From: Bacteroidetes bacterium HGW-Bacteroidetes-4
Lineage (GTDB): Bacteria > Bacteroidota > Bacteroidia > Bacteroidales > SZUA-534
Direction: 5' to 3'
Assembly (NCBI GenBank): GCA_002840905.1
Contig: PHDD01000012.1
Location: 80,144 to 144,143 of the forward strand
Length of the DNA: 64,000 nucleotides
Shown here: positions 1,337 through 46,571 of the stretch, piece by piece
Position numbering within the stretch: the first letter of the stretch is position 1
Layout: the number at the start of each line of letters is the position of its first letter
Translations under genes and position numbers: made by a program
The notes under the pieces: model-generated
The model's database searches: none
What the model was told of the DNA's origin: nothing
Seen by the model: the letters and a program-made list of their open reading frames with translations, nothing else

Positions 1337-1344
1337 TATTAATT

Positions 1345-1374: not shown

Positions 1375-1385
1375 TACAATTAGCT

Positions 1386-1844: not shown

Positions 1845-1858
1845 ATAGCCCCTGGCAC

Positions 1859-2026
1859 ATGTTTCAAGGTGTGGTTAAGTACTATGGATGGACTTTAGAC
1901 TATGTATTGTGGGAAATAAGTTTTGTAAACTTAATAATGCTGATAGCCGCTATTGAGGGCGACGAGGAACAAGGCGAAGAAATTACCCTGGGCGAATTAG
2001 CCGCCAGGGCCAGCAACGACAAATAA
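1859..2026 (+). CDS. Small ORF (55 aa) in the -1 frame relative to 1386-1844. It is either a candidate gpT-like frameshift extension or an independent small gene
   Basis: ATG at 1859 to TAA at 2024-2026, translating to MFQGVVKYYGWTLDYVLWEISFVNLIMLIAAIEGDEEQGEEITLGELAARASNDK. The frame is open back to 1784, giving a 61-nt overlap with the upstream ORF. It is below the ORF-track size cutoff. Confidence 0.35.
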   Translation: MFQGVVKYYGWTLDYVLWEISFVNLIMLIAAIEGDEEQGEEITLGELAARASNDK

Positions 2027-2035
2027 AAAAAAACA

Positions 2036-5320: not shown

Positions 5321-5322
5321 CT

Positions 5323-8047: not shown

Positions 8048-8049
8048 AC

Positions 8050-8715
8050 ATGGCAGACCAAATTCAGATAAGATATGATACAGCCGAAAACTGGACGGCT
8101 GTTAATCCTGTGCTCGCAATTGCAGAGGAAGGACACGAACTTGTTACCAACAAGCGAAAAATAGGCGACGGCGTAACCGCATGGAATGCCCTGCCATATT
8201 TCGGCGGTGAAAATGGCCCGAGTACCGCAAATATAATTCACGGGGCCACGGCAAAAGAAACGCTCGCTGATGCCGACGAGTTGGCCCTTGTTGATAGTGA
8301 GGATGGCAATAGCTTAAAGAAGCTTAGCATTGCCAATCTAAATGCAATCTTTTTAGCCTGGCTAAAAACGTTTTTTACCAGCCGGAAAACCATTGAGGTT
8401 AGTGTAGCTGCCGGACAATTACAGTTTGATTTTGATAGCCTCCGCGAGGTGTGGGCAACCAAAACCGGGGGCGGTGCAATTGTAGTTAACGAGAATGTGA
8501 CTATTAGCTATGTGAACGCGACCAATTTCAAGAGCTTGTGGTTTCCGGTAAACGTAACCACCAGCGCCAGAACCTTCACGTTCCCAGGTGACCATATTTG
8601 CGGTGACGAGCGTTGGATAAGCCCGCTGCTTACCCTTGAGGTGGGAAAGTACCAAATATCGGTGATGAACGATGGGGTGAATAAACATGTGAGCTGTAGC
8701 CAAAAGGAGGTTTAG
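8050..8715 (+). CDS. Tail fibre protein with an Mtd_N / hyaluronidase-type N-terminal motif
   Basis: The N-terminus reads IQIRYDTAENWTAVNPVLAIAEEGHELVTNKRKIGDGVTAWNALPYFGG. This matches the widespread fibre motif (R..T...W...NP.L..GE.G.E.DT...KIGDG.T.WN.LPY). Confidence 0.6.
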   Translation: MADQIQIRYDTAENWTAVNPVLAIAEEGHELVTNKRKIGDGVTAWNALPYFGGENGPSTANIIHGATAKETLADADELALVDSEDGNSLKKLSIANLNAIFLAWLKTFFTSRKTIEVSVAAGQLQFDFDSLREVWATKTGGGAIVVNENVTISYVNATNFKSLWFPVNVTTSARTFTFPGDHICGDERWISPLLTLEVGKYQISVMNDGVNKHVSCSQKEV

Positions 8716-8716
8716 T

Positions 8717-9832
8717 ATGAGTTTGATTGTTGCCAATAACGCCAATTTGTGGGGCAAAGCCTCAAAGCCTTTCGTAACTGAATGGACTGTTCCCGACAAT
8801 ACAACGGTGACGCTCCCACATTTAAGCGGGTATGTTTATACCTATTTTGTTGACTGGGGGGATGGCTCCCCCCGCAAGTACGTAGCCGCTTATAATGACC
8901 CTAATGCCTCACACACCTATGCTGTAGCCGGAACCTACGAGGTTAAGATTGTGGGGACTTGTGAGAGCTTTTGGGTGAGCAATGGAGCTATGAAAGGTTA
9001 TATCACGAAGCATTTAAAATTTGGTGATATAGGTCTTGTGGCTTTGAATTTTTATGGTTGTTCTAATCTTACCGGCACTATACCGGATGATTCTGAGGGA
9101 CTCAATAAATTGGTAAATGGAGCCGCAATGTATTTTGGCACGAGTGTTTCCGGGTCAATTCCTTCAAACTTCCTTTATTATTCTCATTTAGTAACCAATC
9201 TATCATATGCGCTTGCTAGTACAGATTTAACAGGAATAGTTCCGGTAACATTTCTCGACCATTGCACCGAATTGACTAACATAAGTAATTTATTCTCAGG
9301 CTCACAAATTTCTGGGGGGATACCAGTTAATTTCCTTATCTACTGTACAAAGCTAACGAATGTTCGGTATTTGTTTAGAGAAACCCTGGTATCAGGAGCT
9401 ATTCCAGCAAACTTATTTATAAATTGTACTTTACTAACAGATGCCGCAGGAGTGTTTTGGATTTGCCCAAACATTACAGGGGCAATTCCGGCAGGTTATT
9501 TGTCAAATTGTACGCTACTAAACACAGTTTACGGCCATTTCAGAGATACTGGCATTTCTAATACAATTCCAAACGATTTTCTTTCAAATCACCCATATTT
9601 AGCAATAGTTTCTTATTTGTTTTATAACACTGATTTATCAGGTGATGTACCTGCCAATTTATTTGCAAACAGCCCAAATATTACTGAAATGATTGGAACG
9701 TTTAGGTTCCTGTCCTTATTGACTGGGGATGCCCCAGCTTATTGGCTCCGGGTGCCCGAACCGAACGGAACTACATGTTTTGGAAGCTGTAATTTTGATA
9801 ATCAAGCATTAATACCTGCAACATGGAAATAG
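8717..9832 (+). CDS. Putative receptor-binding protein: PKD-like domain plus ~9 LRR-like repeats of ~27 aa
   Basis: PKD-like signature FVDWGDGSPRKYVAAYNDPNASHTYAVAGTYEVKIVG. It is followed by repeats of the form F....(L/I)(S/T)G.IP.NF(L).NC..LT....., for example FSGSQISGGIPVNFLIYCTKLTNVRYL. It is the last large gene of the tail module. Confidence 0.6.
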   Translation: MSLIVANNANLWGKASKPFVTEWTVPDNTTVTLPHLSGYVYTYFVDWGDGSPRKYVAAYNDPNASHTYAVAGTYEVKIVGTCESFWVSNGAMKGYITKHLKFGDIGLVALNFYGCSNLTGTIPDDSEGLNKLVNGAAMYFGTSVSGSIPSNFLYYSHLVTNLSYALASTDLTGIVPVTFLDHCTELTNISNLFSGSQISGGIPVNFLIYCTKLTNVRYLFRETLVSGAIPANLFINCTLLTDAAGVFWICPNITGAIPAGYLSNCTLLNTVYGHFRDTGISNTIPNDFLSNHPYLAIVSYLFYNTDLSGDVPANLFANSPNITEMIGTFRFLSLLTGDAPAYWLRVPEPNGTTCFGSCNFDNQALIPATWK

Positions 9833-10035
9833 ACCTTATACAATCAGAGACAAGCGAGATGACACTAATTAACTTGGGTGATATATTACCCCCTGAAGTA
9901 ATTACTGAGGTGGTTAACCTTAGAGCCGGGTATGCTATCGATATCCGCGCCACAAACGAGAGTCCAAGGCTTTTGGTTAACCTGGGGGAGCTTATTGCCC
10001 CGGGTGTTATTACGCAGGTGTTTAACGCTAAATAA
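9823..10035 (+). CDS. Small phage protein (70 aa) with an internal duplication
   Basis: It overlaps the RBP gene end by 10 nt. LINLGDILPPEVITEVVNL and LVNLGELIAPGVITQVFNA are two copies of one motif. There is no TM segment. Confidence 0.4.
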   Translation: MEIDLIQSETSEMTLINLGDILPPEVITEVVNLRAGYAIDIRATNESPRLLVNLGELIAPGVITQVFNAK

Positions 10036-10040
10036 AAAGC

Positions 10041-10080
10041 TTTTAAAGGTAATACACGGGAAAAGTATTAACCTTTAAAA
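10041..10080 (+). terminator. Hairpin after the tail module
   Basis: TTTTAAAGGT (10041-10050) pairs perfectly with ACCTTTAAAA (10071-10080). The stem extends imperfectly through GGTAATAC/GTATTAACC. There is no clean T-run. Confidence 0.5.
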
Positions 10081-10089
10081 CTTAAAGTC

Positions 10090-10878
10090 ATGCGAATTTA
10101 TTTAAAAACGCCGGTAAGCTACTACGGCGGTAAACAAATGATGCTCAAGGAAATTTTACCGCTCATTCCTGAGCATTCGCTTTATTGCGAACCCTTTTGC
10201 GGCGGTGCAGCGGTGTTTTGGGCGAAAGAACCCAGCAAAGTAGAGGTAATAAACGACCTTAACACCGAAGTAATAAACTTTTACAGGGTTTTAAAGCTAC
10301 ATTTCGACGAGCTTTACAGCCTGGTTCAATCCACCATCCACAGTCGCCAGCTTTACGACGACGCACGGGTAATAAGTTCAAACCCTCATTTATTTTCTGA
10401 AGTAAAACGCGCCTGGGCCTTTTGGGTAAACACGTCGCAAAGCTTCAGTTCAATTATTGGCGGCGGCTGGGCTTATGCCCGCAAAGAAAACACTTGTGAG
10501 AAAAAGGTTGACAATGCAAAGCTTCGCTTTCAGGAGGTGTTTAGCAACCGTTTAAGCCGTGTTCAAATTGAAAGCCAGGACGCGCTCCGGGTGATAAAAA
10601 GCCGGGATAGTGTTGATACGTTCTTTTATTGCGATCCGCCCTACCCGGAAACTGACCAGGGTCATTATACGGGGTACACACAACATCATTTTAATGCCCT
10701 CCTGGAAACATTGTCGAATGTTAAGGGGAGGTTTCTTTTATCGTCGTTCCCTAACGCTGAGCTTAATAAATACGCACAGCGGTTTGGTTGGATTCAAACA
10801 GAGCACTCTAAAAACCTGTGTGCTACCAAAATAAATAAGGGTAAAAAGAAGGTGGAAGTATTGACCCGGAATTATTAA
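10090..10878 (+). CDS. dam: Orphan DNA adenine methyltransferase (Dam / D12 class N6-MTase)
   Basis: N-terminal YYGGKQMMLKEILPLIPEHSLYCEPFCGGAAVFW (SAM-binding FxGxG-type) and the catalytic DPPY in FFYCDPPYPETDQGHY. No adjacent restriction gene is present. Confidence 0.9.
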   Translation: MRIYLKTPVSYYGGKQMMLKEILPLIPEHSLYCEPFCGGAAVFWAKEPSKVEVINDLNTEVINFYRVLKLHFDELYSLVQSTIHSRQLYDDARVISSNPHLFSEVKRAWAFWVNTSQSFSSIIGGGWAYARKENTCEKKVDNAKLRFQEVFSNRLSRVQIESQDALRVIKSRDSVDTFFYCDPPYPETDQGHYTGYTQHHFNALLETLSNVKGRFLLSSFPNAELNKYAQRFGWIQTEHSKNLCATKINKGKKKVEVLTRNY

Positions 10879-10884
10879 TAAAAA

Positions 10885-11012
10885 GGTCAGAGTGCAAGCG
10901 CCAACTATCAAGGGAAACCCAGGGGGGCGTAAAAAGCCCCGCACTCTGACCCGTATTTTGGTAATACACGGGCAAAACGCGGGGTTTCCCTTTTAAAATT
11001 TTGATAGTTGGC
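10885..11012. repeat. Interleaved inverted repeats between convergent genes (terminator or structured element)
   Basis: IR-A: GGTCAGAGTGC 10885-10895 pairs with GCACTCTGACC 10941-10951. IR-B: GCCAACTATCAAGGGAAACCC 10900-10920 pairs with GGGTTTCCC 10982-10990 plus TTGATAGTTGGC 11001-11012. Inner hairpin: GGGGC-GTAAAAA-GCCCC at 10924-10940. Confidence 0.6.
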
Positions 11013-12018: not shown

Positions 12019-13932
12019 CTATTCCAGGTAATTCCTGAGCAGTTGTATAAATTGATTTTCGTCGATAGGGTTTTGTACTACCATATCGCCAATGGGTTCA
12101 GGAATAAACTCGACCAGTTCTTTTTCCACGTTATTGTGGGCTATAACCGGTATGTCGGGATAATTTTCTTTAAGGCTTTTTACCAGTTCCGAAGCAGGCA
12201 TGTAGGGAAGGTAGAGGTTTACTATTATCAGGGTTACCACTTGGTTTTGTTCCAGTAATTCGAGGGCTTGCCGGGCTCTTTCGGCAAAAACTAAAGTTGC
12301 CTGGGTTTTATGCAACAGGGCTTTTAGTTTTTCGTCCTCCCAGGAATGCTTTCCGATAATTAACAAGGTTTTACCTATTAAATTTAATTCGCTTGTTTGA
12401 ATTGATTTTTGCTTATTTAACTGGGGCTTTACCGGAATGCTCACACTAAACATGGTTTCTTTTCCGGGAATACTGACAAACTCGATGGTTCCGTTCAATA
12501 ATTCAACCAGTGCCTTTACAATGGACAAGCCGATTCCGGTTCCACCATACTTTCGGGTGTTTTGGTTGTCGAGTTGCCGAAACGATTCGTAAATTTCCGA
12601 TTTAATTTTTTTCGATATGCCGATACCCGTATCTTTTACCATTAAATTTAGCTTATTATTGGGTGTAATATCAATAAATACATCGATATGCCCCTCGTCG
12701 GTGAACTTAATGGCATTGTCGATGAGCTTGGTGGCAATTTGTTTTAATCCTTCCAGATCGCTTATAATAGGGCAGGGGTTGGGAATGTTATTGATAATGG
12801 AAAAAGTCAGTTTGTGTTCTTTAAGGATGAAAACTTCGCGGGTATAGCGATTGGCCAGCTCTTCAATCAGGATATTTATATCGAATAATTCAGGATGCAG
12901 GGTATATTGACCCGATTCGAGCCGAGCCATCATCATAATGTCGGAAATTACATGCAACAGGTTGTTGGTACTGGTTTGTATAATGTTGAGGTAGCGGTGG
13001 GCTTCGTTGGTGTTTATGTCATCGCCCTTGAGCAGGGTGGTAAACCCAACAATAGCATTCATGGGTGTACGAACCTCGTGCGACATGTTCGACAGGAAAC
13101 TCGACTTCAGTTGGTCGGCTGCCTGGGCTTTTTCTTTAGCCTCTTGCAGCAAACGGTTCGATTCTTCGAGTTGTTGGTTTGTTAGGTTGAGTTGTTGGTT
13201 TATTTGCTGATATTCCTGATTGATTTTTTTACTTTCGTCGATTTGTTTCTTTAAAAGCTGCTCGGTTTGTTTCCGGTTTTCAATCTCTTTCGACAACAAT
13301 CGGTTAATCCGTTGCAGGTTCACTTCATGCAGGTTGCTCAATTCTATTTTTTGGGTTAAAAATTGCAGGGTTTTATTCCAAAACATAAAAATTACTGCAG
13401 CTACTATCGAAAACAGCAGCAGTAGCATGGCCCAGCTCGAAAGGGAATCTACAAAAAGTTCCACATCGGCCTGAATGGTAAGTAGCTTAAAGCGGAATAA
13501 AAAGGCGCAGGCAATATAGAAAACTATAACCGTGGTAAGCGAAATAATGCCCCACAACTTGTTTATGAGAATGGCTGCAAGTACCACAAACAGTAATAAA
13601 AGTAAAACGCCCTGCGACAGCAATCCATAGGTTAATATTCCCCCGGCTCCTACGGTAAAGATTACCATTAACAGAATCCAGGCTCGGAGCTGCCACGACA
13701 TCAGGTTGCGCCACACAAAACTTGACAAAAGTACCATAGCCATAACCACATGGTAATAATTTAAGGGGGTAATGCCGAATTCACGAATACGCAGCAGGGT
13801 TCCCAGCAGGGCAAACCACATAAATATAATAACAATCCAACCCAGCAAATCGACCAATTTGGCTTTTATCTGGCTCAGTTCATTGATGGTAGCACTGGAA
13901 TCAGTTGTTGTTGGTTTTGTTCGTTTAATCAT
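12019..13932 (-). CDS. Membrane-bound sensor histidine kinase with a degenerate C-terminal receiver-like domain
   Basis: About 6 N-terminal TM helices, then a coiled-coil. H-box FLSNMSHEVRTPMNAIVGF. ATPase G-boxes DTGIGIS and GGTGIGLSIV. The C-terminal REC-like fold has N where the phospho-Asp is expected (LIIVNLYLPYM). Confidence 0.9.
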   Translation of the reverse strand: MIKRTKPTTTDSSATINELSQIKAKLVDLLGWIVIIFMWFALLGTLLRIREFGITPLNYYHVVMAMVLLSSFVWRNLMSWQLRAWILLMVIFTVGAGGILTYGLLSQGVLLLLLFVVLAAILINKLWGIISLTTVIVFYIACAFLFRFKLLTIQADVELFVDSLSSWAMLLLLFSIVAAVIFMFWNKTLQFLTQKIELSNLHEVNLQRINRLLSKEIENRKQTEQLLKKQIDESKKINQEYQQINQQLNLTNQQLEESNRLLQEAKEKAQAADQLKSSFLSNMSHEVRTPMNAIVGFTTLLKGDDINTNEAHRYLNIIQTSTNNLLHVISDIMMMARLESGQYTLHPELFDINILIEELANRYTREVFILKEHKLTFSIINNIPNPCPIISDLEGLKQIATKLIDNAIKFTDEGHIDVFIDITPNNKLNLMVKDTGIGISKKIKSEIYESFRQLDNQNTRKYGGTGIGLSIVKALVELLNGTIEFVSIPGKETMFSVSIPVKPQLNKQKSIQTSELNLIGKTLLIIGKHSWEDEKLKALLHKTQATLVFAERARQALELLEQNQVVTLIIVNLYLPYMPASELVKSLKENYPDIPVIAHNNVEKELVEFIPEPIGDMVVQNPIDENQFIQLLRNYLE

Positions 13933-21675: not shown

Positions 21676-22881
21676 TTAAAGAGCTTTAGGCAAGGTAAAA
21701 TAAAAGGTAGTTTCTTTGTTAACTTCACTTTCGACCCAAATTTCACCCCCATTTTTTAAAACAAACTCTTTGCAAATAATCAATCCCAGTCCGCTGCCTG
21801 GCGCATCTTCCTGCGAAAGGTGTTGTTTCATATCAATTTTAAATAACTGGTTTAAAAGTTCGGGCTCAATTCCTTTTCCATTATCCCAAACTTTTAACTG
21901 AAGCATATCGCCATCTTCTTTTGCTTCAATGCGAACCAGGCCATTTTTTGGTGTAAATTTTAAAGCGTTTGAAAGTAAGTTTCTAAAAATAGTTTTCACC
22001 ATATCCACATCGATGTAAGCATGCAAATGCTTGCTAATAGATGTTTCAACCTTTATTTGGTTTTGACTGGCGTTTACATCGAGCAATTCAACTACTTCAT
22101 TTACAATTTCACTTATGTTGGCCCGTTTAAAGCTTATTTTTAAACTTCCGGTTTGCGATTTGGCCCATTGCAATAAATTTTCCAGAAGGTTAAAAGCTCC
22201 CCGGGAATATTTGTTTATTTGCTTAATGTATTCATGTGCTTGTTCCGGTGCAATTTTTTCCTGTTTCTGAATTAATAAATCGGAAATGCTGATTACGGTA
22301 CTAAACGGGTTCTTTAAATCGTGAGCAATAATCGTGAAAAATTTGTCTTTTGTTGCATTAACATCTTCCAATTGTTTTTTTTGCGTCTTGATGTTCTCTT
22401 TTTCTTCTTCAAGGGCAAATTTGCTGCGTTGAATCTCAAGAGTTCGTTTGGTAAGTTTTTCTTCCAGAATATTGTAGTCGCGTAAGCGTTTTATTAGCGA
22501 TACCAGAACATTTTTCCATAGCTCTGGGCGTTGTTGGGTTACCTGGTTAAAAGTGCTTTGTTTTAACTCCAGTAGTTTGCTATCGCGAATGGCAGTAACG
22601 GTAGCAGAGCGCACCGCACTGTCGATGAGTGAATATTCACCAAAAAACTGTTTATTGTTGAGTGTGGTAAAAATATAATCGTTGTCGTGTATTTGTACCG
22701 AACCTTCAATTATAATATACATTGCGTTTCCAATATCGCCTTTTTTAAATAGCGCTTCGTCTTTTTTGAGGTGAACTTCGGTCATACTTTTAACAAACTC
22801 CATTAAAATAGAATCATCAAAAGCAGAGAAAATTTCAACTTCTTTTAAGAGAAATAAAACTTCGTTGTTTAAGGTGCTCAT
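21676..22881 (-). CDS. Cyclic-nucleotide-binding domain fused to a histidine kinase
   Basis: cNMP-binding fold (GDIGNAMYIIIEGSVQI...FFGEYSLIDSAVRSATVTAIRDSKLLEL). H-box FFTIIAHDLKNPF. ATPase motifs DNGKGIE and GSGLGLIICKEF. Confidence 0.85.
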   Translation of the reverse strand: MSTLNNEVLFLLKEVEIFSAFDDSILMEFVKSMTEVHLKKDEALFKKGDIGNAMYIIIEGSVQIHDNDYIFTTLNNKQFFGEYSLIDSAVRSATVTAIRDSKLLELKQSTFNQVTQQRPELWKNVLVSLIKRLRDYNILEEKLTKRTLEIQRSKFALEEEKENIKTQKKQLEDVNATKDKFFTIIAHDLKNPFSTVISISDLLIQKQEKIAPEQAHEYIKQINKYSRGAFNLLENLLQWAKSQTGSLKISFKRANISEIVNEVVELLDVNASQNQIKVETSISKHLHAYIDVDMVKTIFRNLLSNALKFTPKNGLVRIEAKEDGDMLQLKVWDNGKGIEPELLNQLFKIDMKQHLSQEDAPGSGLGLIICKEFVLKNGGEIWVESEVNKETTFYFTLPKAL

Positions 22882-27038: not shown

Positions 27039-29474
27039 TTAGAAATTGAGGTTTGTATTGATAATTTTTAACAGTTCAATTCGATTGATAGGTTTGGAAA
27101 TAAAATCGGTACAACCAGCTTCTAAACAAACATCACGGTCTTCCTCGGAACTATTGGCGGTTTGCGCAATAATAGGCTTGTAGAATCCCAGTAAGCGAAT
27201 TTTTTTGGTAGCTTCAATTCCGTCGAGCCGTGGAAGCCTGATATCCATTAGAATAAGATCGATATCGGGGTGCAACCTGACTTTGTTTAATGCTTCGAAT
27301 CCATCAGTGGCATGAATAATTTTTGCATTACTGGGCAAGAGCAATGTATCTAAATAAGACTGATTAACTGAGTCGTCTTCAACAATCAGAATTTTTTTAT
27401 CGTTCCATTGCAAATCAAAACTCAGCTCGTCTGCTTGATTGTTTTTTTCCAATGATAATGCTGGCTCATAAGGAATGGTAAAATAAAATGTAGTTCCTTT
27501 TTGAGGTTCTGAATCAAGCCAAATAGTTCCCCCCATTAATTCAACAAACCCTTTGCAGATAGGCAAACCAAGACCAGCTCCCTCAAAATTCCGGGCATAG
27601 CCTTCTTCGGCCTGACCAAAACGTTCAAAAATTAAGCGATGCTTCGATTTAGGAATGCCAATCCCCGTATCTTTAACATGAAAGACAATGTTTGTGCCTT
27701 CTATCTCATAGCCCAATTCGATGAAGCCATTGTAAGTGAATTTTAAAGCGTTGTTTAACAGGTTGGTAATAACCTGTTGAATTCGGGAACTATCGCAATG
27801 TATAAATGCTTGACTTCCTTTTATGGGCAATAGGGTTTTAATCTCGACTTCAGATTCGTTAAAAAAATTGGGAGGCAGGGTTTGCAGCGCATCCAGTATG
27901 AGTTGGTTCAAATCGTAATCGTTTTTATTGATTTTGAGCTGTCCCACTTCAATTTTCGATAAATCGAGAATGTTGTTAATAATATTCAGCAATTGATTGC
28001 TCGATTTAAATATTACATCAAGGAATTGTTTTTGTTTATCGGGTGGTTGTTCTGTATTTCGCAGCAATTCGGTATAACCGGTTATTGCATTCATGGGCGA
28101 ACGTATTTCGTGGCTCATGTTTGCCAAAAAAGCCGATTTGAGTTTGTTGTTTTCTTCAGCTTCGTTTTTTGCTTTAATTAATTCACGCTCAATATTTAAT
28201 CGATAAATACTTAGTGCAAAAACGCTGGCTAGTTGTTTAAGAACTACTATATCGTGTTCCATGTAGGGTCTGTCGCTTCCGCTGACATATATTTGGCCAA
28301 TGAGTTCGTTATTAAAAGTAGCTGGCACCAGTAAGCAATTTTCGCGGGTCATGCTGCATTCAAAAATTTTATTCTCGGCCAAAAAATCTTTTAAATGGTT
28401 CGATATAAAAGGAACTTTTTTTGCCTGCATGCGATTAATCAGACAGTTGTATTTTTTATCGTTTAAACAGGGTTCGTGATCTTCGGTAATGGCTTTAAGC
28501 GAATAGTTTTCAGAAACCTGCCATTCCAATTGTTTGGTTTCGGTATTTAGCGAAGAAACAAATCCGGTGGAACTTTTAGTGATGGAAAGTGCAGTTGATA
28601 GAATTTTTTTTGCAATATTTTCTTCTGATAATTCGGGCAACAAAATGGTTTGACTAATTTCAGCCAGTACTTTATTAATGGTAGCCTCTTTTTTTAAGGC
28701 TTTTTCTATGTTTTTGCTTTCGGTAATATCGCGGTAGGTAATTACTGCACCTTCCAGTTGGTTTTTATTGTCGAAAACGGGAAATGTAACCGATAAAATA
28801 CTTGGTCCGTTTTTTATCGTGCGCACTGTTCGATGCGGAATGCTCGATTCCAAAACAATTTTAAGGGAACAATTTAAACAAGGATTATCCATGTTATGGA
28901 TAACTTTGTGGCATTTCTGACCTGACAAATCATTATTGTATAGTGGATATTGTTCTTTAAACTTATTGTTGGCATATTTAATTTTAAAGTCGGGACCAAT
29001 AAAAACGGCACTGTCAATCATGCTGTCGATAAACTGCATTTTTTCCTGTTCTGCTTTTAAAAGAGCTTCTTTAACCGTTTTTATTTCACTGATATCGCTT
29101 ATGAAACCCTGTAAGAGGATTTGCTTGTTGTTTAAAACCAGTACATTTCCCTTAAGTTGCAGCCAAAAAGTATTACCGTTGGTTCCAATTGCTGGCCATT
29201 CAAAACTAAACTTAGGTGAAGGGTTTTTAGTAAAGTTTTTAATAAACGGCTTAACGTATTCTTTATTAAAACTTTCGAGAAAATTAGGAGTATTGTTTAT
29301 TTGTTCGAGGTCAAATAAAAAAAATGTTGGTTGAGAATTGTAAAAATAGTTTTCGCCGGTTGTCAGGTTCCAGTCAAAACGAACCAATCCGCTTTGTTGC
29401 CATAGTTGTACATCGGATTCGGACAGGGTTCGTATTGTTTTTTTCATTAATGTTTCGGATTCAGGGTTTTTCAA
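27039..29474 (-). CDS. Hybrid sensor histidine kinase / response regulator (PAS-PAS-GAF-HisKA-HATPase-REC)
   Basis: H-box FLANMSHEIRSPMNAITGY. ATPase DTGIGIP and GAGLGLPICKGF. Intact receiver KILIVEDDSVNQ...DLILMDIRLPRLDG...KPIIAQTA. Confidence 0.9.
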   Translation of the reverse strand: MKNPESETLMKKTIRTLSESDVQLWQQSGLVRFDWNLTTGENYFYNSQPTFFLFDLEQINNTPNFLESFNKEYVKPFIKNFTKNPSPKFSFEWPAIGTNGNTFWLQLKGNVLVLNNKQILLQGFISDISEIKTVKEALLKAEQEKMQFIDSMIDSAVFIGPDFKIKYANNKFKEQYPLYNNDLSGQKCHKVIHNMDNPCLNCSLKIVLESSIPHRTVRTIKNGPSILSVTFPVFDNKNQLEGAVITYRDITESKNIEKALKKEATINKVLAEISQTILLPELSEENIAKKILSTALSITKSSTGFVSSLNTETKQLEWQVSENYSLKAITEDHEPCLNDKKYNCLINRMQAKKVPFISNHLKDFLAENKIFECSMTRENCLLVPATFNNELIGQIYVSGSDRPYMEHDIVVLKQLASVFALSIYRLNIERELIKAKNEAEENNKLKSAFLANMSHEIRSPMNAITGYTELLRNTEQPPDKQKQFLDVIFKSSNQLLNIINNILDLSKIEVGQLKINKNDYDLNQLILDALQTLPPNFFNESEVEIKTLLPIKGSQAFIHCDSSRIQQVITNLLNNALKFTYNGFIELGYEIEGTNIVFHVKDTGIGIPKSKHRLIFERFGQAEEGYARNFEGAGLGLPICKGFVELMGGTIWLDSEPQKGTTFYFTIPYEPALSLEKNNQADELSFDLQWNDKKILIVEDDSVNQSYLDTLLLPSNAKIIHATDGFEALNKVRLHPDIDLILMDIRLPRLDGIEATKKIRLLGFYKPIIAQTANSSEEDRDVCLEAGCTDFISKPINRIELLKIINTNLNF

Positions 29475-29513: not shown

Positions 29514-31550
29514 TTAATCCATATGTTCTAATTTTAATCGGGTGGGTTGGTAAGGAATGGTAAAATAAATACTGGAACCCATTCCCTGATAGGATTTTAT
29601 CCAGATTCTACCCCCCATCAATTCAACCAGACCTCTCGAAATGGGTAATCCAAGTCCGGTACCTCCCGTATTAATTGATATTGCCGGATTGCTTTGTACA
29701 AAACGATCGAAAATGTGTTTTTGATATTCAACAGGAATTCCGTCGCCGGTATCCTTTACATAAAACTCAATGTGTTGATTGTTTTCAATAGAATAGCCCA
29801 ACTCTACAAAACCTTTTTGTGTAAAGTTTAGTGCATTATCAATCAGGTTTATCAAAACCTGTTTAAGTCTCGATTCGTCGGCATTAATGTAGGTAAGCAG
29901 TTTATCGGTAAAAGGAATAATGCGCAATTCGAGTAAAGGGTTTTTTGCAAATGTTGGGGCAAAGTGTCTTTCAATATCTTCAAATAGTTCATTTATTGAA
30001 ACTTCGCGGTTAAACAATTGTAATTGCCTGGTCTCAAGTTTCGAAATATCGATAATATTATTCAACAGGGATAAGAGTTGATTGCTGCTTTTATAAATAA
30101 TTTCGAGATACTGATGTTTTTCAGAATCTGAAACCGTATTATTGTAAAGCAATTCAGCAAAGCCTGTTATACCATTCATGGGAGTCCTGATTTCATGGCT
30201 TACGTTGGCCAAAAATGCGGTTTTAAGTTTGTCGTTTTCTTCGGCTTTTTCTTTGGCTTTTATCAGTTCTTCTTCCACTTGTTTTTTTTGCGAAATATCC
30301 TGAATAATTCCAACCATAACCACCGGTTCTCCATTGTTGTCAACTTTGGTAACAATGCTCCAGTCGTTTATCCATTTGTAAGAACCATTCTTTGCTTTTA
30401 CCCTGTATTCCAGTGCATAAAAGTTTTGTTCACCCACGAGACACGATTCCAGGGTACTGAAATAATTGGCCATATCGGATGGATGCAGGTTATCTTTTAG
30501 CCAACCGGGAATACGGTTTATGGTATTGTTTGAGTATCCAAAAATATTGGCATAGCGTTCGTCAACGAAGTATTTCTGTTCCCGCAAATCGAACTCCCAG
30601 GTTCCCAGATTTCCGGCCAGCAGCGCAAACTGAAGCCGTTTTTCGCTTTGCTTTAAACGCTTAAATGTTACGTGTTGCTTTATAGTGTTACTAATTATAA
30701 GGCTGGTCATTTTTAAGATATGAATATCAGAAAAATCCCATTTTTGATTCATTTCAAAGCGGATGAGAACCAAAGCACCAATAGTTTGCCGGTCGTTTTG
30801 TATACCTGCAATAGCAAGCGATGAAGCCTGCTGCTCTTGTAATTTTTTTTTGATTCCATTAATTAACGGAGGAGTCTCGTCCAGGTTATGATAATATACC
30901 AGTTTTTGTTCTTTAATTACTTCTATCAGGTAATTTACCTCTTTTGGAGCCAACATATCGATAAATGGTTTGTTGGAGTGGTCGCCCAAACGGAATTCTT
31001 CAGAGACGGAGTTATTATCAATTCTTAACAGATATACCAATCCGGCCTGGCACAGTTCACCCACTTCGCTCATGGTCGATAACATGGCATTTTCGTAATC
31101 GTCGCTGTTTACAAAGCGTGAAGCAATTTCCGATATCTTACGTTCGAACAGCAGTTCTTTCTCTTTTAAGATATTATACTTTACTTTATCGGTAACTTCC
31201 TGAACGGTTCCCGCTATATAGGGCATTTGTTTGTCGTAAGTTAAATAGCAATTTAACTCGAAATGCCTGATGCGCTTATCAACCATTTGAAACGAAAATA
31301 TTTTCGATGCCGGAGGATTTCCTTTCTTAACCAGATGGATGTATTTTAAAAGCTCCAGGTAATCAACTTTTAAGTGGGTTGCTTTTATGTACTTTATGAT
31401 GGCTTTGGTGGTAATTTCCTCACTTATGAAGCTGAGAATGGTGTTAACTCCTTCAGAAAACCGGGCGGTGTTTTGTTTTGGCCACCATTCCCAATATCCA
31501 AGACTAGCTAATTGCTCAATATTTTTGTTTTGGATAATTAATCTATCCAT
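29514..31550 (-). CDS. PAS/GAF sensor histidine kinase (no receiver)
   Basis: H-box FLANVSHEIRTPMNGITGF. ATPase DTGDGIP and GTGLGLPISRGL. PAS- and GAF-like regions lie at the N-terminus. Confidence 0.9.
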   Translation of the reverse strand: MDRLIIQNKNIEQLASLGYWEWWPKQNTARFSEGVNTILSFISEEITTKAIIKYIKATHLKVDYLELLKYIHLVKKGNPPASKIFSFQMVDKRIRHFELNCYLTYDKQMPYIAGTVQEVTDKVKYNILKEKELLFERKISEIASRFVNSDDYENAMLSTMSEVGELCQAGLVYLLRIDNNSVSEEFRLGDHSNKPFIDMLAPKEVNYLIEVIKEQKLVYYHNLDETPPLINGIKKKLQEQQASSLAIAGIQNDRQTIGALVLIRFEMNQKWDFSDIHILKMTSLIISNTIKQHVTFKRLKQSEKRLQFALLAGNLGTWEFDLREQKYFVDERYANIFGYSNNTINRIPGWLKDNLHPSDMANYFSTLESCLVGEQNFYALEYRVKAKNGSYKWINDWSIVTKVDNNGEPVVMVGIIQDISQKKQVEEELIKAKEKAEENDKLKTAFLANVSHEIRTPMNGITGFAELLYNNTVSDSEKHQYLEIIYKSSNQLLSLLNNIIDISKLETRQLQLFNREVSINELFEDIERHFAPTFAKNPLLELRIIPFTDKLLTYINADESRLKQVLINLIDNALNFTQKGFVELGYSIENNQHIEFYVKDTGDGIPVEYQKHIFDRFVQSNPAISINTGGTGLGLPISRGLVELMGGRIWIKSYQGMGSSIYFTIPYQPTRLKLEHMD

Positions 31551-31781: not shown

Positions 31782-34700
31782 TTAAATCCACCGTAAATAG
31801 GCAAAATCCTGCCGGTGTGGGAGTTCCTTATTTTTTGGGAATATACGCAAACCATAATCGTAGGTCCCAGGTTTTTTAAGTTCAAAGTTTATTTCGTAAA
31901 AAGCCAGGGTATCTACTTTTTTTGTTAGTTTAAGTTCCTTAATGTCAATAATTTTTTGACCGCCCTGTAGCGCAAAAACCAATTCTACGCCTAAATCATC
32001 TTCTGACAGTCCTTTTAAGTCGAGTACAACTTCACCACGGTAATTTTCACCCATTTTAAAAGCTGCTTTCATGGTATTGGGAAAATCGACCGAAACCAAA
32101 TCTATTTGATCCCAGGAAGCTCTTATTTTGTTTTTCCATTGCGAAAGTTCCATGGCCAATTTATAGCCATTGGCTTGAATTCGAGTGGTTCGTTTATGGA
32201 GTTTAAGGTAAAATTTATTGATGTAATCATCGAGCATGCGTTTGGTGGTAAAGTGCGGTGCAATTCCGGCAATCGAACGTTTAATGTATTGTACCCATTC
32301 AACAGGAATATCGTTTTTATCGCGGGTGTAGTATAAAGGCGTAATTTCGTTTTCAAGAATACTATAAATGGTAGCTGCATCAAGTTCATTCTGGAAGTCC
32401 TGATTTGCGTAGGTACGTTTTTCGGGTAAAGCCCAACCGGCTTTTTCTTTGTAGCCTTCAACCCACCATCCGTCGAGAACGCTGAAGTTCAGTACGCCAT
32501 TCATTTCGGCTTTTTGTCCGCTGGTTCCGCTGGCCTCTAACGGACGGGTAGGATTATTTAGCCAAATATCCACACCTCGTACCAAACGTTTAGCTAATTC
32601 CATGTCGTAGTTTTCAAGGAAAAGTATTTTTCCGATAAACTCAGGACGACGCGAAATTTCAATAATATGTTTTATCAAATCCTGGCCTGCTTTATCGTTC
32701 GGATGTGCTTTTCCGGCAAAAAGAAATTGAACCGGGCGATCCGGATTATTGGCTATGCGGGCCAAACGTTCAATATCACTAAATATCAGATGGGCTCGTT
32801 TGTAAGTGGCAAACCTTCGGGCAAAACCAATGGTTAAGGTTTTTTCATTCACCGAGTTTAAAATATCAACAATTAGTTTAGGATTTTCGTGCCGGCGTAT
32901 AAATGATTCGTGGTACCTTTCTTTAACATAGTCAATTAAGCGTTTTCGGTACTGGTTCCGGGTTTCCCATATTGTTTTATCATCAACTTCGAATATTTTT
33001 TCCCAGTACGATGGATTCGATAAATCGTTCAGAAATCCTTCGCCAAACTGCGATTCATATAGCTTCCGCCATTTACTGGCGGTCCAGGTAGGGTAATGAA
33101 CCCCGTTGGTCACATAGTCAATATGTAGTTCACTGGCAGAAAAACCTTTCCACATGTATTGAAACATTTCTTTCGACACATCGCCGTGGAGCCGGCTAAC
33201 TCCATTCATTTCCTGCGAAGTTTTGGTGGCCAGCACACTCATTGAAAATTTTTCGCCATGGGCATTATCCACACCCCGGCCTAAATTGAGGAAGGTTTCC
33301 CAATCAATTTTCAAACGTTCGGGCAAATGGCGCATGTAGGTGCGAATCAATTCTTCATCGAATGCATCGTGGCCGGCTGGAACTGGTGTATGAGTGGTGA
33401 ACAGGGAACTGGAGCGAACCACTTCCATAGCTTCATCAAAGGTTAGGTTTTCGTGTTGAATCAGGTCCGAAAGTCGCTCTACGTTTATCATAGCAGCATG
33501 ACCTTCGTTGCAATGATAAATATCGGGATTCAGGTTTAATTCTCCTAAAGCCCTGATGCCACCAAAACCTAATATAATTTCTTGCTTTAAACGGTTTTCC
33601 CAGTCTCCTCCATAAAGCTGGTGGCTAATGGTGCGGTCTTCGGGGCTGTTTTCCAGGTAATCGGTATCGAGTAGAAAAAGAGGAATTCGACCTACCATTA
33701 CTTTCCAGATGCGCGCTTTTACAATACGTCCGGGTAGATTTACCGATACGGTTACCAGTTGTTTTAATTCATCGTAAATGGGCTCAATGGGCAGGTCGGC
33801 AAATTTTTGTGGTACAAGACTGGCTTGCTGCTCACCCGAAACAGAAAGGTGTTGGGTAAAGTATCCGTACTTATACAGAAAACCAACAGCAATCATTGGA
33901 ATGTTGCAATCGCTGGCCTCTTTCAGGTAATCGCCTGCCAAAATTCCCAAACCACCGGAATATATTTTAAGGTTGTCGGTAAGCCCGTATTCCATGCTAA
34001 AATAGCCAATCTTAGGCATGTTTTTTTGGACCGGTGTGTCCATGTAGTTCCTGAAATCGGTATATACTTTATCAAGATGTTTCAGAAAGCTTTTATCTTT
34101 GGTTAACTCTTCAAAGCGGTCCGATGATACCGTTTTTAATAAAACAACCGGGTTTTTCTGGCACTTTTTCCAGGTATCGGGTGACACACTTTCAAAAAGT
34201 TCCATGGCCTCATAATTCCAACACCACCATAGGTTCATCGACAACTCATCGAGTTGTTTGAGTGCTCCCGGAAGGTTGGAATGAATTATCATTTTTTTCC
34301 AGATTGGTTCGTTACTGGTTTGTTTGTTTTCCATTGGTTTATATGCTATTTTGGATAAATAATTCGTTTTTTCACGTTTTGATGCGGTTTGAGTTGCTTT
34401 CTCGTAAGCATCGTAATAATATTTACTAAAATTTTGCCATACGGTATCGGTTGTAAGGGCTTTGGCTTTAATGCTTATGGTTTTTCGTTCATTTTTTGAT
34501 AAATTACTCATGCTAAGTGTCCAGGATTCAATTTGTTCCACTACCTGGTTGTAATTGTCTTCGGTTCGTTTAACCACACCCAGACCATCCATCAAATCGG
34601 TCGATTTTTTTTGCATCCATTGCCCAAAACCCGAAAGACTGGTGGTAACTGTAGGAACTCCAACTGCCAGACTTTCCATGGGGGTATATCCCCAGGGTTC

Positions 34701-35993
34701 GTAATACGAGGGAAAGGCTGACATATGGAATCCGCTTAACAAATGATAATAATCGGTATTAAAAATTCCGTCGTTTCCGTTGAGGTACACGGGTGCAAAA
34801 ATTACTTTTACCTTTTGTTCCGGTTTATTCCACAGATTCAATTGTTGGCATCGATCAATAATGGGATCGTATCGGTTTGGGTTTAAGCTGTGTGTGGTAA
34901 AAGGATTGGGTAAGGGTTGAAACTGCCCTGATTTCAGGTTTTCCAGCAATTCTTTACGTGGGCCGTATTGTTCATTCGGAACTAAAATAAAAGCCACTAC
35001 CTGATTGTTTAATGCCGGGTTTTGATTTAATTTTCCCAGAGAATCTAAAAAAACATCAATACCTTTATTTTTAAATTCATACCGTCCGCTGGTGGCTATA
35101 AAAAGTGTGTTTTCGTTGCAACTGCCTCCGGTTAAAGCATTGGTAACTTTGCAAAGTATAGTGCGTGCTGAATTAATAGTACTTTCAGTTATTTTTTCCA
35201 GATGCTCCAAGGCAAATCCATTGGGAGTAATAAAGTCGGGCTCATTATTCAGCAAAAATTCACATTCGTTGGCTGTAACTTTACTAACGGTAGTAAATAC
35301 ATCGGACAGAATGGAAGCGTTTTTTTCTAAGGAATGTTTGGCCGAAACGCCAATATCTTTGGCTTTTTGGTCGGGATCGAACGAGCCGATTGAACTGTAA
35401 AGTGGCAAACCATTTCCAGCTATTGAACGGCCTAGAACTGTAGCATGTGTGGTAAAAACTGTGGCTATTTGTGGTGCATTTTCTTTGAGAAAAAGCACGC
35501 CGGCTCCGGTCATCCACTCATGGAATTGAGCAACCACTTTTTTATCGATCAGATAAAATTCTGAGAAGCTTTTAATAACCATTCCGGTAGCATATCCAAA
35601 TAAGGCAGATTCAACATAATCCCATTCTCCGCTTAGTGAATCAAGTTTAAAAACTTCCCATAAGTGTGTAAATATTTCATCTTTTTGGGGGATTAATGCA
35701 GTGAAATCGACCAGAAGGGCTTTGGGTTTGTTGGGTACATTCCAATATCCGGTTCTAAATCGTACTTCATGGCAATTTGCAGTAGCTTTCCAGTCCTGAA
35801 AAAGGTTTTTATCTTCAATAAATTCAGGATGAGTTTGTTTGTTGCTAAGAATATCGGGGCCAATAAATATCATGTTTTCACCAAACACCTGATAGTATGA
35901 GGGTAGTTTTGAAGTGATTACTGTATGAATTCCACCAACTTTATTGCATACTTCCCAACTTGTTTCAAATAAAAACATTCCGTTCTCTTCCAT
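31782..35993 (-). CDS. Fusion protein: GT3 (eukaryote-type) glycogen synthase domain plus GT35 alpha-glucan phosphorylase domain
   Basis: N-terminus: MFLFETSWEVCNKVGGIHTVITSK (GT3 hallmark). C-terminal ~830 aa: GYFSMEYGL..LKIYSGGLGILAGDYLKEASD and the PLP-Lys motif EASGTSGQKAEMNG. It is one uninterrupted 1403-codon ORF. Confidence 0.9.
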   Translation of the reverse strand: MEENGMFLFETSWEVCNKVGGIHTVITSKLPSYYQVFGENMIFIGPDILSNKQTHPEFIEDKNLFQDWKATANCHEVRFRTGYWNVPNKPKALLVDFTALIPQKDEIFTHLWEVFKLDSLSGEWDYVESALFGYATGMVIKSFSEFYLIDKKVVAQFHEWMTGAGVLFLKENAPQIATVFTTHATVLGRSIAGNGLPLYSSIGSFDPDQKAKDIGVSAKHSLEKNASILSDVFTTVSKVTANECEFLLNNEPDFITPNGFALEHLEKITESTINSARTILCKVTNALTGGSCNENTLFIATSGRYEFKNKGIDVFLDSLGKLNQNPALNNQVVAFILVPNEQYGPRKELLENLKSGQFQPLPNPFTTHSLNPNRYDPIIDRCQQLNLWNKPEQKVKVIFAPVYLNGNDGIFNTDYYHLLSGFHMSAFPSYYEPWGYTPMESLAVGVPTVTTSLSGFGQWMQKKSTDLMDGLGVVKRTEDNYNQVVEQIESWTLSMSNLSKNERKTISIKAKALTTDTVWQNFSKYYYDAYEKATQTASKREKTNYLSKIAYKPMENKQTSNEPIWKKMIIHSNLPGALKQLDELSMNLWWCWNYEAMELFESVSPDTWKKCQKNPVVLLKTVSSDRFEELTKDKSFLKHLDKVYTDFRNYMDTPVQKNMPKIGYFSMEYGLTDNLKIYSGGLGILAGDYLKEASDCNIPMIAVGFLYKYGYFTQHLSVSGEQQASLVPQKFADLPIEPIYDELKQLVTVSVNLPGRIVKARIWKVMVGRIPLFLLDTDYLENSPEDRTISHQLYGGDWENRLKQEIILGFGGIRALGELNLNPDIYHCNEGHAAMINVERLSDLIQHENLTFDEAMEVVRSSSLFTTHTPVPAGHDAFDEELIRTYMRHLPERLKIDWETFLNLGRGVDNAHGEKFSMSVLATKTSQEMNGVSRLHGDVSKEMFQYMWKGFSASELHIDYVTNGVHYPTWTASKWRKLYESQFGEGFLNDLSNPSYWEKIFEVDDKTIWETRNQYRKRLIDYVKERYHESFIRRHENPKLIVDILNSVNEKTLTIGFARRFATYKRAHLIFSDIERLARIANNPDRPVQFLFAGKAHPNDKAGQDLIKHIIEISRRPEFIGKILFLENYDMELAKRLVRGVDIWLNNPTRPLEASGTSGQKAEMNGVLNFSVLDGWWVEGYKEKAGWALPEKRTYANQDFQNELDAATIYSILENEITPLYYTRDKNDIPVEWVQYIKRSIAGIAPHFTTKRMLDDYINKFYLKLHKRTTRIQANGYKLAMELSQWKNKIRASWDQIDLVSVDFPNTMKAAFKMGENYRGEVVLDLKGLSEDDLGVELVFALQGGQKIIDIKELKLTKKVDTLAFYEINFELKKPGTYDYGLRIFPKNKELPHRQDFAYLRWI

Positions 35994-44741: not shown

Positions 44742-45530
44742 CTACTTACTTTCTTCAATTTTTTTATACGCGGTAATCATTCCACGAATAAGTGCCGCAC
44801 TAAAACCCTGATGCTCCATTTCGTTTAAGCCCGTAATGGTAATTCCTTTGGGAGTGGTAACGGTATCAATTAATGCTTCCGGATGTTTTCCACTGCTGAG
44901 CAGCAATTCTGCAGCTCCTTTTACGGTTTGATTGGCAATTTGTGTCGCCGTTTTTGAGTCGAAGCCAATTTGAACACCAGCCTGAACCATGGCCCGGATA
45001 AACCGTAAGGCAAAAGCGGTTCCACAGGCACCCAATACCGTGGCCGACTCCATCAGTTCTTCGTTTATTACCACCGTTTCGCCAATAGCATTGAATACTT
45101 TTTTAACTTGCTCTAATTTGAGTGCATCAGCGCCATTTTTACTCAAACAAGTTGCCGATTGCCCCACACTTGCTGCCACATTGGGCATGGCCCGGAATAC
45201 GTTTGTAGTTTGTCCGGCATGTTGCTTAAGTTCATTCAGGGTAACTCCGGTAGCAGTAGAAACAATGATGTGTTCGTCGGTAAAATAAGGGCTGAGTTCG
45301 GCAATTACTTTCAATATGCGATAGGGCTTTAAGGTAAAAAAAAGGATTTTATTTTCTTTAACGGCTTTAATATTGTCCGATGTAACCTGAACACTTTTCT
45401 GTTCAAGCCATTCAAGGGCTTCGGTGTTTCTGCGGGTAGCTGTAAGCTGAAACGCTTCTCCGCTTTTAATAAAACCTTCAACCAAACTTAATCCCAGGTT
45501 TCCGCAGCCAATTATTGCAATTTTAGTCAT
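44742..45530 (-). CDS. proC: Pyrroline-5-carboxylate reductase
   Basis: Rossmann KIAIIGCGNLGLSLVEGF, a C-terminal dimerisation domain and VTTPKGITITGL. I chose the start at Met16 (45530). Confidence 0.9.
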   Translation of the reverse strand: MTKIAIIGCGNLGLSLVEGFIKSGEAFQLTATRRNTEALEWLEQKSVQVTSDNIKAVKENKILFFTLKPYRILKVIAELSPYFTDEHIIVSTATGVTLNELKQHAGQTTNVFRAMPNVAASVGQSATCLSKNGADALKLEQVKKVFNAIGETVVINEELMESATVLGACGTAFALRFIRAMVQAGVQIGFDSKTATQIANQTVKGAAELLLSSGKHPEALIDTVTTPKGITITGLNEMEHQGFSAALIRGMITAYKKIEESK

Positions 45531-45780
45531 TAGTATATTATATATTAATATAAATATGAGATAAAAAGAGAACAAATATAACTAAATATTGCAAAACGAT
45601 TATAAAATGAATTATTATAGATGCAATTTGTAGCAATATGCATTTTGTATGTCGAAAGGAGAGAGGTTCTTTCTGATGAACTGAACCATTGAATTTAAGT
45701 TCAAATAGAATGACTGGAAAAGCGGGTACCAGTAAGCGGAATATGGGAACTGGATGAGGATTTTAGGGTATAAACCCTGA

Positions 45781-45969
45781 ATCAATGGAATTATAGGTCA
45801 AATCAACCGGGATAATTGCCTAATCAACGTGGATAAATGCTTGATTAACGGAGATAAATGGTTAATCAACAGGGATAAATGCTTGATCAACGGGGAGATT
45901 TACCGTATTAATAGGGATATTTGCCTGATCAACGGGGATAATTTGAAAATCAACAGGGTAAAAAGTTGC
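45781..45969 (+). repeat. Nine contiguous 21-bp tandem repeats, consensus ATCAACNGGGATAAATGCYTG
   Basis: Read directly. Units start at 45781, 45802, 45823, 45844, 45865, 45886, 45907, 45928 and 45949, with no indels or spacers. Confidence 0.95.
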
Positions 45970-46571
45970 TAGGTCTCAAACACCTCGGTATTTCCTTTGG
46001 TAGCCTTTTTTCGAAGGGTTTTTATGAATTTTATATCGCAACGACTAAGCTCGTCCGACTTCAGTAATTCAAGGCAACGGGCAAAACGCCCCAAATGACG
46101 GTTTGCTTCAGCTTTTAGTAACACCTGTTCCGGATTTTCAGCATCGAGTAAGTCTTCCAGTGCCTCCAGATTGTCAATCCAATGCATCTTAAAATCGGGA
46201 TTATTCAAAAGTTCATCATTGCCCAAAGGATGATGCGTTCCAAAATACCAAAGCTCTTTTCGTAAATAAATTTGCTGGTCAAGGCTGAGCTCTTTTGAGT
46301 TCTTTAGTAACTCAAAATAGTGTTCCATCGATGGTTCAGCAGCTTTAGTATAACTTTCCTTTTCATTTAAATGAAGTCGTATTTCCAACGATTCATAGAA
46401 AAATACTTCGTCGCAAACGGGGCATTGCACCAGCTTTGATACGTTGGGTAAATTAGGCCCGATAGCAAAACCATCGCTGTAGAAAATGGCATCTTCAGTA
46501 GTACTATTTGTTGGTATGGAATGGCTTAAATTCACACAACAATAGGGGCACTCAAAAGCTATGGTTTTCAT
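45969..46571 (-). CDS. Hypothetical protein with an N-terminal CxxC...CxxC zinc-ribbon
   Basis: 200 aa. It has ECPYCC...QCPVCD cysteine pairs followed by a helical C-terminal domain. No family was recognised. Confidence 0.6.
   Translation of the reverse strand: MKTIAFECPYCCVNLSHSIPTNSTTEDAIFYSDGFAIGPNLPNVSKLVQCPVCDEVFFYESLEIRLHLNEKESYTKAAEPSMEHYFELLKNSKELSLDQQIYLRKELWYFGTHHPLGNDELLNNPDFKMHWIDNLEALEDLLDAENPEQVLLKAEANRHLGRFARCLELLKSDELSRCDIKFIKTLRKKATKGNTEVFET

Follow-up and report, generated by a model that had tools for sequence, protein, structure and literature searches.

We found that a 64,000-nt stretch of the genome of Bacteroidetes bacterium HGW-Bacteroidetes-4 (contig PHDD01000012.1, positions 80,144 to 144,143 of the forward strand; below, "the window" means this whole stretch) carries an array of nine 21-bp direct repeats between a gene for a 200-amino-acid (200-aa) protein and proC. 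The array is real, strictly phased, conserved, restricted to one clade, selected in the core of its repeat unit, and non-coding. From these properties we tentatively infer that the array is an element acting at the level of DNA, bound cooperatively by a protein, with an effect on transcription around proC.

The first-pass annotation of this DNA had described nine head-to-tail 21-nt units at 45781-45969, abutting the stop codon of the 200-aa gene and lying about 250 bp upstream of proC. Indeed, all nine units are present in the sequence at these coordinates, with no spacers and no indels, and the end of the array is 248 bp from the ATG of proC (45533), which lies downstream of it. Tandem Repeats Finder reports a period of 21 with 72% matches and 0% indels over 45801-45943, together with a period-42 row over 45802-45962. 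It counts only 6.8 copies because the outer units are degenerate. An independent repeat search also placed the copies at exact 21-nt intervals. Since both flanking genes are on the minus strand, the array is best read on that (gene) strand, in a register shifted from the 45781-45969 of the first-pass annotation:

45779..45967, minus strand: array of nine 21-bp direct repeats, gene-strand register RGCAWW-TATCCC-YR-TTGAT-YA, with motif matches at exact 21-nt spacing

In this register the degenerate units are those at 45947-45967, beside the stop codon, and at 45779-45799, closest to proC. The information content of the unit peaks at positions 7-12 and 15-19. We defined the core accordingly as TATCCC-NN-TTGAT, an asymmetric stretch of 13 nt, which gives eleven core positions (TATCCC and TTGAT) and ten linker positions per 21-bp unit.

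The array is found at the identical place in all examined relatives whose 200-aa protein is 80-88% identical to that of the window. These are the Salinivirgaceae metagenome-assembled genomes L001 and L002 and the contigs L010, L011/L012, L014 and L078/L079. Its position and phase are thus kept in five further species-level relatives (L001, L002/L079, L010, L011/L012 and L014), across a divergence of 0.18-0.48 differences per fourfold site. In the relatives the array begins 10-35 nt past the stop codon of the 200-aa gene, and every core copy follows a single 21-nt phase in all carriers except L014. L001, L010, L011 and L079 have nine units each, and the window has eight good units and a degenerate one; the assemblies of the relatives are from short reads and are sometimes broken in the array, which limits these copy numbers and the apparent constancy at nine. 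The contig of L002 ends inside the array (4595-4786), and L078 has a 100-N gap there (2098-2655). L002 and L079 (1951-2276), apparently of one species, differ by two whole units, reflecting either a real copy-number polymorphism or an assembly collapse. L014 retains about four good units; its phase slips once, by 1 nt, and the proC-proximal units survive as decayed remnants.

More distant relatives lack the array. We did not find it in the intergenic regions (148-249 bp) of L004, L006-L008, L009 and L080, which have the same gene order, nor within the 84 nt available for L015, whose 200-aa protein is 62% identical. Presence at 80% identity of the 200-aa protein or above, and absence at 52-62%, indicates that the array arose in the ancestor of a narrow uncultured Bacteroidales clade. 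Downstream of the 200-aa gene, the corresponding intergenic region of two array-less relatives contains long inverted repeats that could form hairpins (L006, 3603-3836; L009, 3666-3916); at this place the array-bearing clade has no terminator-like hairpin. A metagenome scan for other copies of the array gave an unrelated match in coding sequence (L003), from a collection that evidently does not contain the samples behind L010-L012.

Units within one genome are 69% identical, as opposed to 86% for orthologous units of different genomes, which shows that the array is old and is not being homogenised. We compared rates of change in six genome pairs. Core positions of orthologous units differ at 0.03-0.09 per site, linker positions at 0.17-0.30, and pooled fourfold sites of the three neighbouring genes (M49 peptidase, 200-aa protein and proC) at 0.19-0.41; the core was defined on the same units as were used for this test, and orthologous units were paired by similarity, both of which bias the rates downward. 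The core is 3-10 times slower than the fourfold sites (P from 6e-3 to 1.5e-12 in the six pairs) and 2-6 times slower than the linker of the same units (P<0.05 in five of the six pairs), and the contrast with the fourfold sites is too large for either bias to explain. Three positions of the unit are invariant in 231 comparisons, 165 paralogous and 66 orthologous. Judged by these rates, the core of the array is evidently under purifying selection.

The phase of the array is strict as well. In the five genomes with an intact array, length changes inside it involve whole 21-nt units only, as in the clean 21-nt gap of the window relative to L001, L010 and L011, and no indel of 1-2 nt was seen, whereas the adjacent spacer of ~250 nt shows 3-7 small indel events per genome pair. 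As 21 bp correspond to two turns of B-DNA, all cores face one side of the helix. Furthermore, the strongest harmonic in the AT content along the unit is at 10.5 bp (P=0.005 when compared with permuted positions), and AT/GC alternation of this kind is a hallmark of DNA bending or wrapping in one direction. Taken together, the whole-unit indels, the two-turn spacing and the 10.5-bp alternation favour action at the level of double-stranded DNA.

These observations bear on a rival explanation, a frozen minisatellite without sequence-specific function. In that case one ancestral 21-bp amplification would now be drifting, its conservation being due to short divergence, mutation bias and occasional unequal exchange. 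The narrow distribution, with the array absent from syntenic relatives, would fit this explanation, as would the partial decay in L014, the gains and losses of whole units between relatives (also between L002 and L079 of one species), the predominance of transitions at the most variable positions, including a CpG at unit positions 13-14, and the fact that neither a partner protein nor a regulon was found by the motif scan and the LytTR search of the window. Drift, however, does not account for a core that changes so much more slowly than both fourfold sites and the linker of the same units, for three invariant positions, or for the lack of 1-2-nt indels in five genomes when indels are common next door. 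Homogenisation would hit all positions alike, and paralogous units are only 69% identical. The first-pass annotation had taken absence or random decay of the array in close relatives as the mark of a neutral minisatellite; instead, the array is present at the same locus with its core selectively kept, and in L014 about half of it has decayed. We thus consider a functionless minisatellite unlikely.

Among known tandem repeats, bacterial variable-number tandem repeat (VNTR) or minisatellite loci resemble the array in being intergenic and head-to-tail, in changing copy number by whole units and in breaking short-read assemblies. The array differs from them in that its units are old and diverged (69%), the order of units persists across species, and the core shows the signs of purifying selection described above. 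It is also unlike a contingency locus: it is intergenic and ~200 bp away from the nearest promoter element described below, a candidate -7 element, and is neither in an open reading frame (ORF) nor between promoter elements. The proposal of a slippage-prone contingency locus, made in the first-pass annotation, therefore finds little support in units that are 69% identical and lie in no ORF or promoter spacer, even if gains and losses of whole units do occur.

The surroundings of the array on its proC side, and the two genes that flank it, are as follows:

45758..45778, minus strand: degenerate tenth unit with a small hairpin, AGGGT-TTAT-ACCCT, followed by AAAA; kept in relatives
45534..45757, minus strand: spacer from the array to the start codon of proC; conserved, with 78-85% identity between genomes
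45573..45580, minus strand: candidate -7 promoter element TATATTTG, matching TAnnTTTG, 40 nt upstream of the proC ATG
44742..45533, minus strand: proC, pyrroline-5-carboxylate reductase (P5CR_dimer, 7.5e-33; F420_oxidored, 1.9e-16)
45969..46571, minus strand: gene for the 200-aa protein, zinc-ribbon-like, of a small family without known function; its stop codon abuts the array

We take TAnnTTTG to be the consensus of the Bacteroidota -7 element, as in Bacteroides promoters, and on this basis call TATATTTG a putative proC promoter element. It is invariant in all array-bearing relatives, and the array lies ~200-390 bp upstream of it. Spacer and tenth unit together measure 248 nt in the window and 252-254 nt in the relatives. 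The spacer (45534-45757), compared with the same stretch in L001, L010, L011, L014 and L078, is more conserved than fourfold sites and contains invariant blocks such as GCTTTTCCAGTCAT, ATTTGAA and the -7 box itself; judging from this conservation, it may contain additional regulatory elements.

The order of genes at the locus is M49 peptidase, 200-aa gene, proC and yceG. The 200-aa protein consists of an N-terminal four-cysteine beta part, zinc-ribbon-like, and a C-terminal helical part, and a search of 5.8 billion sequences returned only 13 clusters of homologues. Members of the family are always encoded between the M49 peptidase gene and proC, and share the four N-terminal cysteines and, in the C-terminal part, an invariant motif, RKK-x2-KG-x-T-x-VF. 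No Pfam family scored above threshold for the 200-aa protein, and its AlphaFold model (predicted local distance difference test score, pLDDT, of 78; a four-cysteine beta domain and a helical domain) had no fold match in the PDB. We rejected this neighbour as the DNA-binding partner of the array, given the missing fold match and the occurrence of the gene without the array.

The arrangement suggests how the array might act. About nine copies of an asymmetric core, all in the same orientation and two helical turns apart, lie on one face of the helix. Since the copies of this asymmetric core share one orientation, binding would be head to tail: a sequence-specific DNA-binding protein would occupy the copies cooperatively and form a filament or wrap covering ~190 bp of DNA. 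Given that the array lies just after the stop codon of the upstream gene and ~200-390 bp before the putative proC promoter element, the effect would likely be on transcription around proC, through distant activation or repression of the promoter or through a block to read-through from the upstream genes. A dependence of this kind on helical phase is documented for iterons, in which cooperative binding to direct repeats is abolished by a half-turn shift between two sites (PMC4980987).

Several observations weigh against binding by a protein that acts on proC. Known regulators use 2-6 sites, usually near the promoter, and the array ends ~200 bp before the -7 box. Outside the array, the remaining 63.8 kb of the window contain no more copies of the motif than expected by chance, which gives no hint of a regulon. 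In L014 the array is about half decayed, and the syntenic relatives with a 52-62% identical 200-aa protein have no array, which implies that proC needs no such element. The downward biases of the rate test, given above, belong on the same side.

The element could alternatively act as RNA, transcribed either as the 3' untranslated region of the 200-aa gene or, by read-through, as a leader of proC, its C-rich, G-poor motif binding an RNA-binding protein or loading Rho in the manner of a rut site. A C-rich, G-poor composition and weak structure are properties of rut sites, and the gene strand of the array shows both, with C at 44 and G at 25 of its 189 positions. We found no intrinsic terminator after the 200-aa gene, and array-less relatives have long hairpins in this intergenic region instead; both would suit an RNA element. 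On the other hand, strict 21-nt spacing and 10.5-bp alternation have no obvious meaning for a flexible single-stranded RNA, and a rut site requires no conserved 13-nt core. Folding of the array was not notable on either strand relative to shuffled sequences (z = -1.5 and -1.0). Neither an Rfam family nor a covarying structure was found: no match reached the gathering score in the window, and there was none at E up to 5 in 45500-46000. Overall, an RNA-level element seems to us rather improbable.

We noted that the array can be translated into heptads, and coding capacity had been suggested in the first-pass annotation, which saw a frame of the form I-N-x-D-x-C-L open across all units. A heptad micro-protein in that plus-strand frame, or in the form L-S-P-L-I-K-H on the gene strand, might be functional or recently pseudogenised. 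As had been stated, only the unit-phased plus frame is free of stops in the window (0, against 8, 8, 2, 2 and 10 in the other five frames), being bounded by TGA at 45778-80 and TAG at 45970-72. The accompanying statement that no ATG, GTG or TTG occurs inside the array was mistaken: GTG occurs in frame at 45829, as does TTG at 45841, 45883 and 45943, and the GTG opens the following frame:

45829..45972, plus strand: ORF of 47 amino acids in the I-N-x-D-x-C-L frame, starting with GTG; in our judgement not a gene

The GTG falls in a variant of the unit that is specific to the window. In the relatives this frame is interrupted, once each in L001, L002 and L010 and three times in L011, and no frame is open in all genomes compared (these four and the window). 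The four relatives share a TGG-TAA stop; since they make up four of the five genomes, the stop is probably ancestral and the TTA of the window probably the derived state. Both gene-strand frames that are stop-free in the consensus unit likewise contain stops, in one frame a TAA that all genomes share. Moreover, with a period of seven codons, a frame that lacks a stop in the consensus unit stays open from one end of the array to the other, so an open frame is weak evidence here; in every genome examined, three of the six frames carry at most two stops, except for one frame of L011 with three.

The pattern of substitution does not point to codons either. The first-pass annotation had read the differences at synonymous sites as a hint of constraint on a protein, and the third codon position is indeed the most variable (60/39/97 differences at positions 1/2/3). 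When unit positions were permuted, however, this periodicity was not significant (P=0.09 for orthologous and 0.36 for paralogous units). Conservation runs in blocks, with 6+5 conserved bases and an 8-nt variable linker, and not by codon. A phmmer search with the 63-aa peptide against 1.84 billion representative proteins, one of the checks that had been proposed, returned 37 weak matches (E<=1e-3), all of them unrelated, heterogeneous heptad translations of low complexity. One match that we traced to its DNA (L016, a 1.2-kb metagenome contig) is an unrelated 21-bp satellite. There, 295-597 comprises a 21-bp array, ATTCATAAACAGAGATAACTG x8.9, followed by its inverted copy, x5.8; the contig also has terminal inverted repeats, and its recorded 232-aa product needs TGA to be read as sense.

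In none of the relatives did gene calling place a gene on the array. Readthrough of the stop codon of the 200-aa gene was rejected, as the phase of the array relative to that stop varies between genomes. A leader peptide with proline codons for proC was rejected as well, there being at most one proline codon per heptad and stops in both sense frames. With stops in the frame of four relatives, low-complexity matches as the only homologues and no called genes, a pseudogenised or readthrough micro-protein loses its footing, and we regard coding of any kind as extremely improbable. By comparative sequence evidence, then, the array does not encode a peptide. It may serve as a worked example: when the period of a repeat is divisible by three, a frame open across it is no evidence of coding.

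If a protein binds the array, its family has to be sought by motif and layout. The first-pass annotation had offered a LytTR-type response regulator, each unit providing a 9-bp box (CCYRTTGAT) and a 12-bp spacer. Such regulators are common in Bacteroidota, and the units match their degenerate consensus, [TA][AC][CA]GTTN[AG][TG], at 5-9 of 9 positions, mostly 6-8. The array and the LytTR sites of PlnC/PlnD, AgrA and ComE have in common a 21-bp period on the same helix face. The sites of PlnC/PlnD are 9-bp direct repeats with a spacer of 12-13 bp, arranged as a pair directly upstream of the -35 box (PMC2714321), so that the 9+12 geometry of the unit equals theirs. Against the PlnC/D repeat TACGTTAAT the units score 4-8 of 9 positions. 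A random 21-nt unit, however, reaches 8 of 9 with the consensus somewhere with P=0.33. The G of the GTT in the box is A in a third of the units, and the best-conserved bases, TATCCC, are for the most part not within the 9-mer. The sites described come in pairs immediately before the -35 box, unlike nine copies ending ~200 bp from a -7 box, and direct repeats at two-turn spacing are also used by AraC-type and other regulators. A Pfam scan of ~45 ORFs of the window, together with motif and phmmer searches, revealed neither a LytTR protein nor any other response regulator carrying a DNA-binding domain. Thus, of the proposed landing pad, the general form is supported by selection on the 13-nt core, the 21-bp phase and the 10.5-bp alternation, and the attribution to LytTR is not, its match being at the level of chance and its layout different; a LytTR regulator as binder appears to us quite improbable.

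Four histidine kinases are encoded within 20 kb (12019-13932, 21676-22881, 27039-29474 and 29514-31550), one with a cyclic-nucleotide-binding (cNMP-binding) domain and another, a hybrid, with a receiver domain; the window encodes no DNA-binding response regulator cognate to them.

Other binders were considered and set aside. By eye, neither the unit nor the spacer before proC fits the consensus of IHF (WATCAANNNNTTR), FNR (TTGAT-N4-ATCAA) or sigma-54 (-24/-12). SeqA/Dam-type phasing of GATC was rejected because GATC occurs in only 1-5 of 9 units, at a position that varies. A cluster of DnaA boxes, as in oriC, was rejected too: the units match TTATCCACA at 4-8 of 9 positions, none being a perfect DnaA box, and have a conserved C where position 7 of the box is A. 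The cumulative GC skew rises steadily through the locus, with no switch.

In its layout the array resembles the iterons of theta-replicating plasmids and phages (RK2, R6K, P1, F), whose tandem direct repeats are ~17-22 bp long, number from several to nine, and share one orientation at a spacing of about two turns. A winged-helix initiator binds iterons cooperatively as a monomer, and an iteron origin requires, close by, the gene for the initiator (rep) as well as DnaA boxes and an AT-rich unwinding element (PMC4980987). Unlike iterons, the array has no adjacent rep gene, DnaA boxes or 13-mer unwinding element, and it lies amid housekeeping genes, in a synteny that also occurs without it and at no switch of GC skew. 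A blastn search of PLSDB and INPHARED gave no match, and plasmid or phage iterons were rejected.

In two other systems, upstream arrays that wrap DNA on an oligomeric regulator, such as Lrp at ilvIH, and the centromere-like repeats of R1 parC bound by ParR, many helix-phased sites over ~200 bp build one large nucleoprotein complex, and in this arrangement of sites they are like the array. They differ from it in that Lrp sites are dyad-symmetric, lie about three turns apart and reach the promoter, and in that R1 parC is next to parMR and on plasmids. The array has neither the motif nor the partner genes of Lrp or ParR.

Outside cellular genomes, viral contigs were scanned for a pair of cores at a distance of 21 bp, which yielded one true array (L019, 6849-7036; IMGVR_UViG_3300044731_000789); three permuted control patterns gave 52 single matches and 0 arrays. 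The L019 array has at least nine tandem 21-bp units (GCAAGGCTATCCCACTTGATA) that are 98% identical, the stored DNA ending inside the array, and its neighbouring genes have no annotation. It is like the array of the window in its TATCCC-NN-TTGAT core layout, and lies in a repeat-rich non-coding region of a phage of 30% GC. The linkers differ, however, and the L019 unit has a dyad, GCTATC-N6-GATAGC, that the unit of the window lacks; the likeness may be due to chance. The non-coding region of L019 (6462-7036) contains tandem repeats of 19 bp (x4.1), 11 bp (x2.8) and 21 bp (x9), and looks like an origin or operator region. It is tempting to speculate that the array of the window might be a chromosomal decoy, titrating a phage protein that binds the TATCCC-NN-TTGAT core.

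Elsewhere in the window, positions 1-10900 are the end of a prophage, with a GC content of 0.46-0.48 compared with ~0.38 in the rest. Its ORFs include one of 1094 aa (2036-5320) with a weak tape-measure match and a perfect (GAT)x9.7 repeat at 3467-3495 inside it, one with a match to Prophage_tail (6482-8047), and one for a D12-class (Dam-like) adenine methyltransferase, either type II or orphan (10090-10878). A cluster of glycogen-metabolism genes at ~23-41 kb (GH13 enzymes, GH57, GT4 and a debranching enzyme) contains a gene for a 1403-aa fusion of glycogen synthase, DUF3417 and a glycogen phosphorylase domain (31782-35993, minus strand).

There is also a bolder form of our proposal, for which we hold out only slight hope. 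The array would be the assembly platform of an undescribed chromosomal nucleoprotein complex, in which a regulator polymerises head to tail on nine two-turn-phased sites, wraps ~190 bp, and switches proC (proline being a compatible solute) or insulates it from upstream transcription in Salinivirgaceae of saline habitats.

As it stands, the array is a well-supported conserved non-coding element, a useful lead more than a surprise. Phased arrays of protein-binding repeats and minisatellites are already known; no described family matches this one by motif, partner or placement, and nine sites far upstream of a housekeeping biosynthetic gene are an unusual layout. To our knowledge, almost nothing has been established about transcription factors or their sites in this uncultured Bacteroidales lineage, where array-bearing, array-decayed and array-less relatives in identical synteny provide a clean natural comparison. 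If a protein does bind here, the array would be an unusually long operator, with nine sites in strict two-turn phase, in a housekeeping region of the chromosome.

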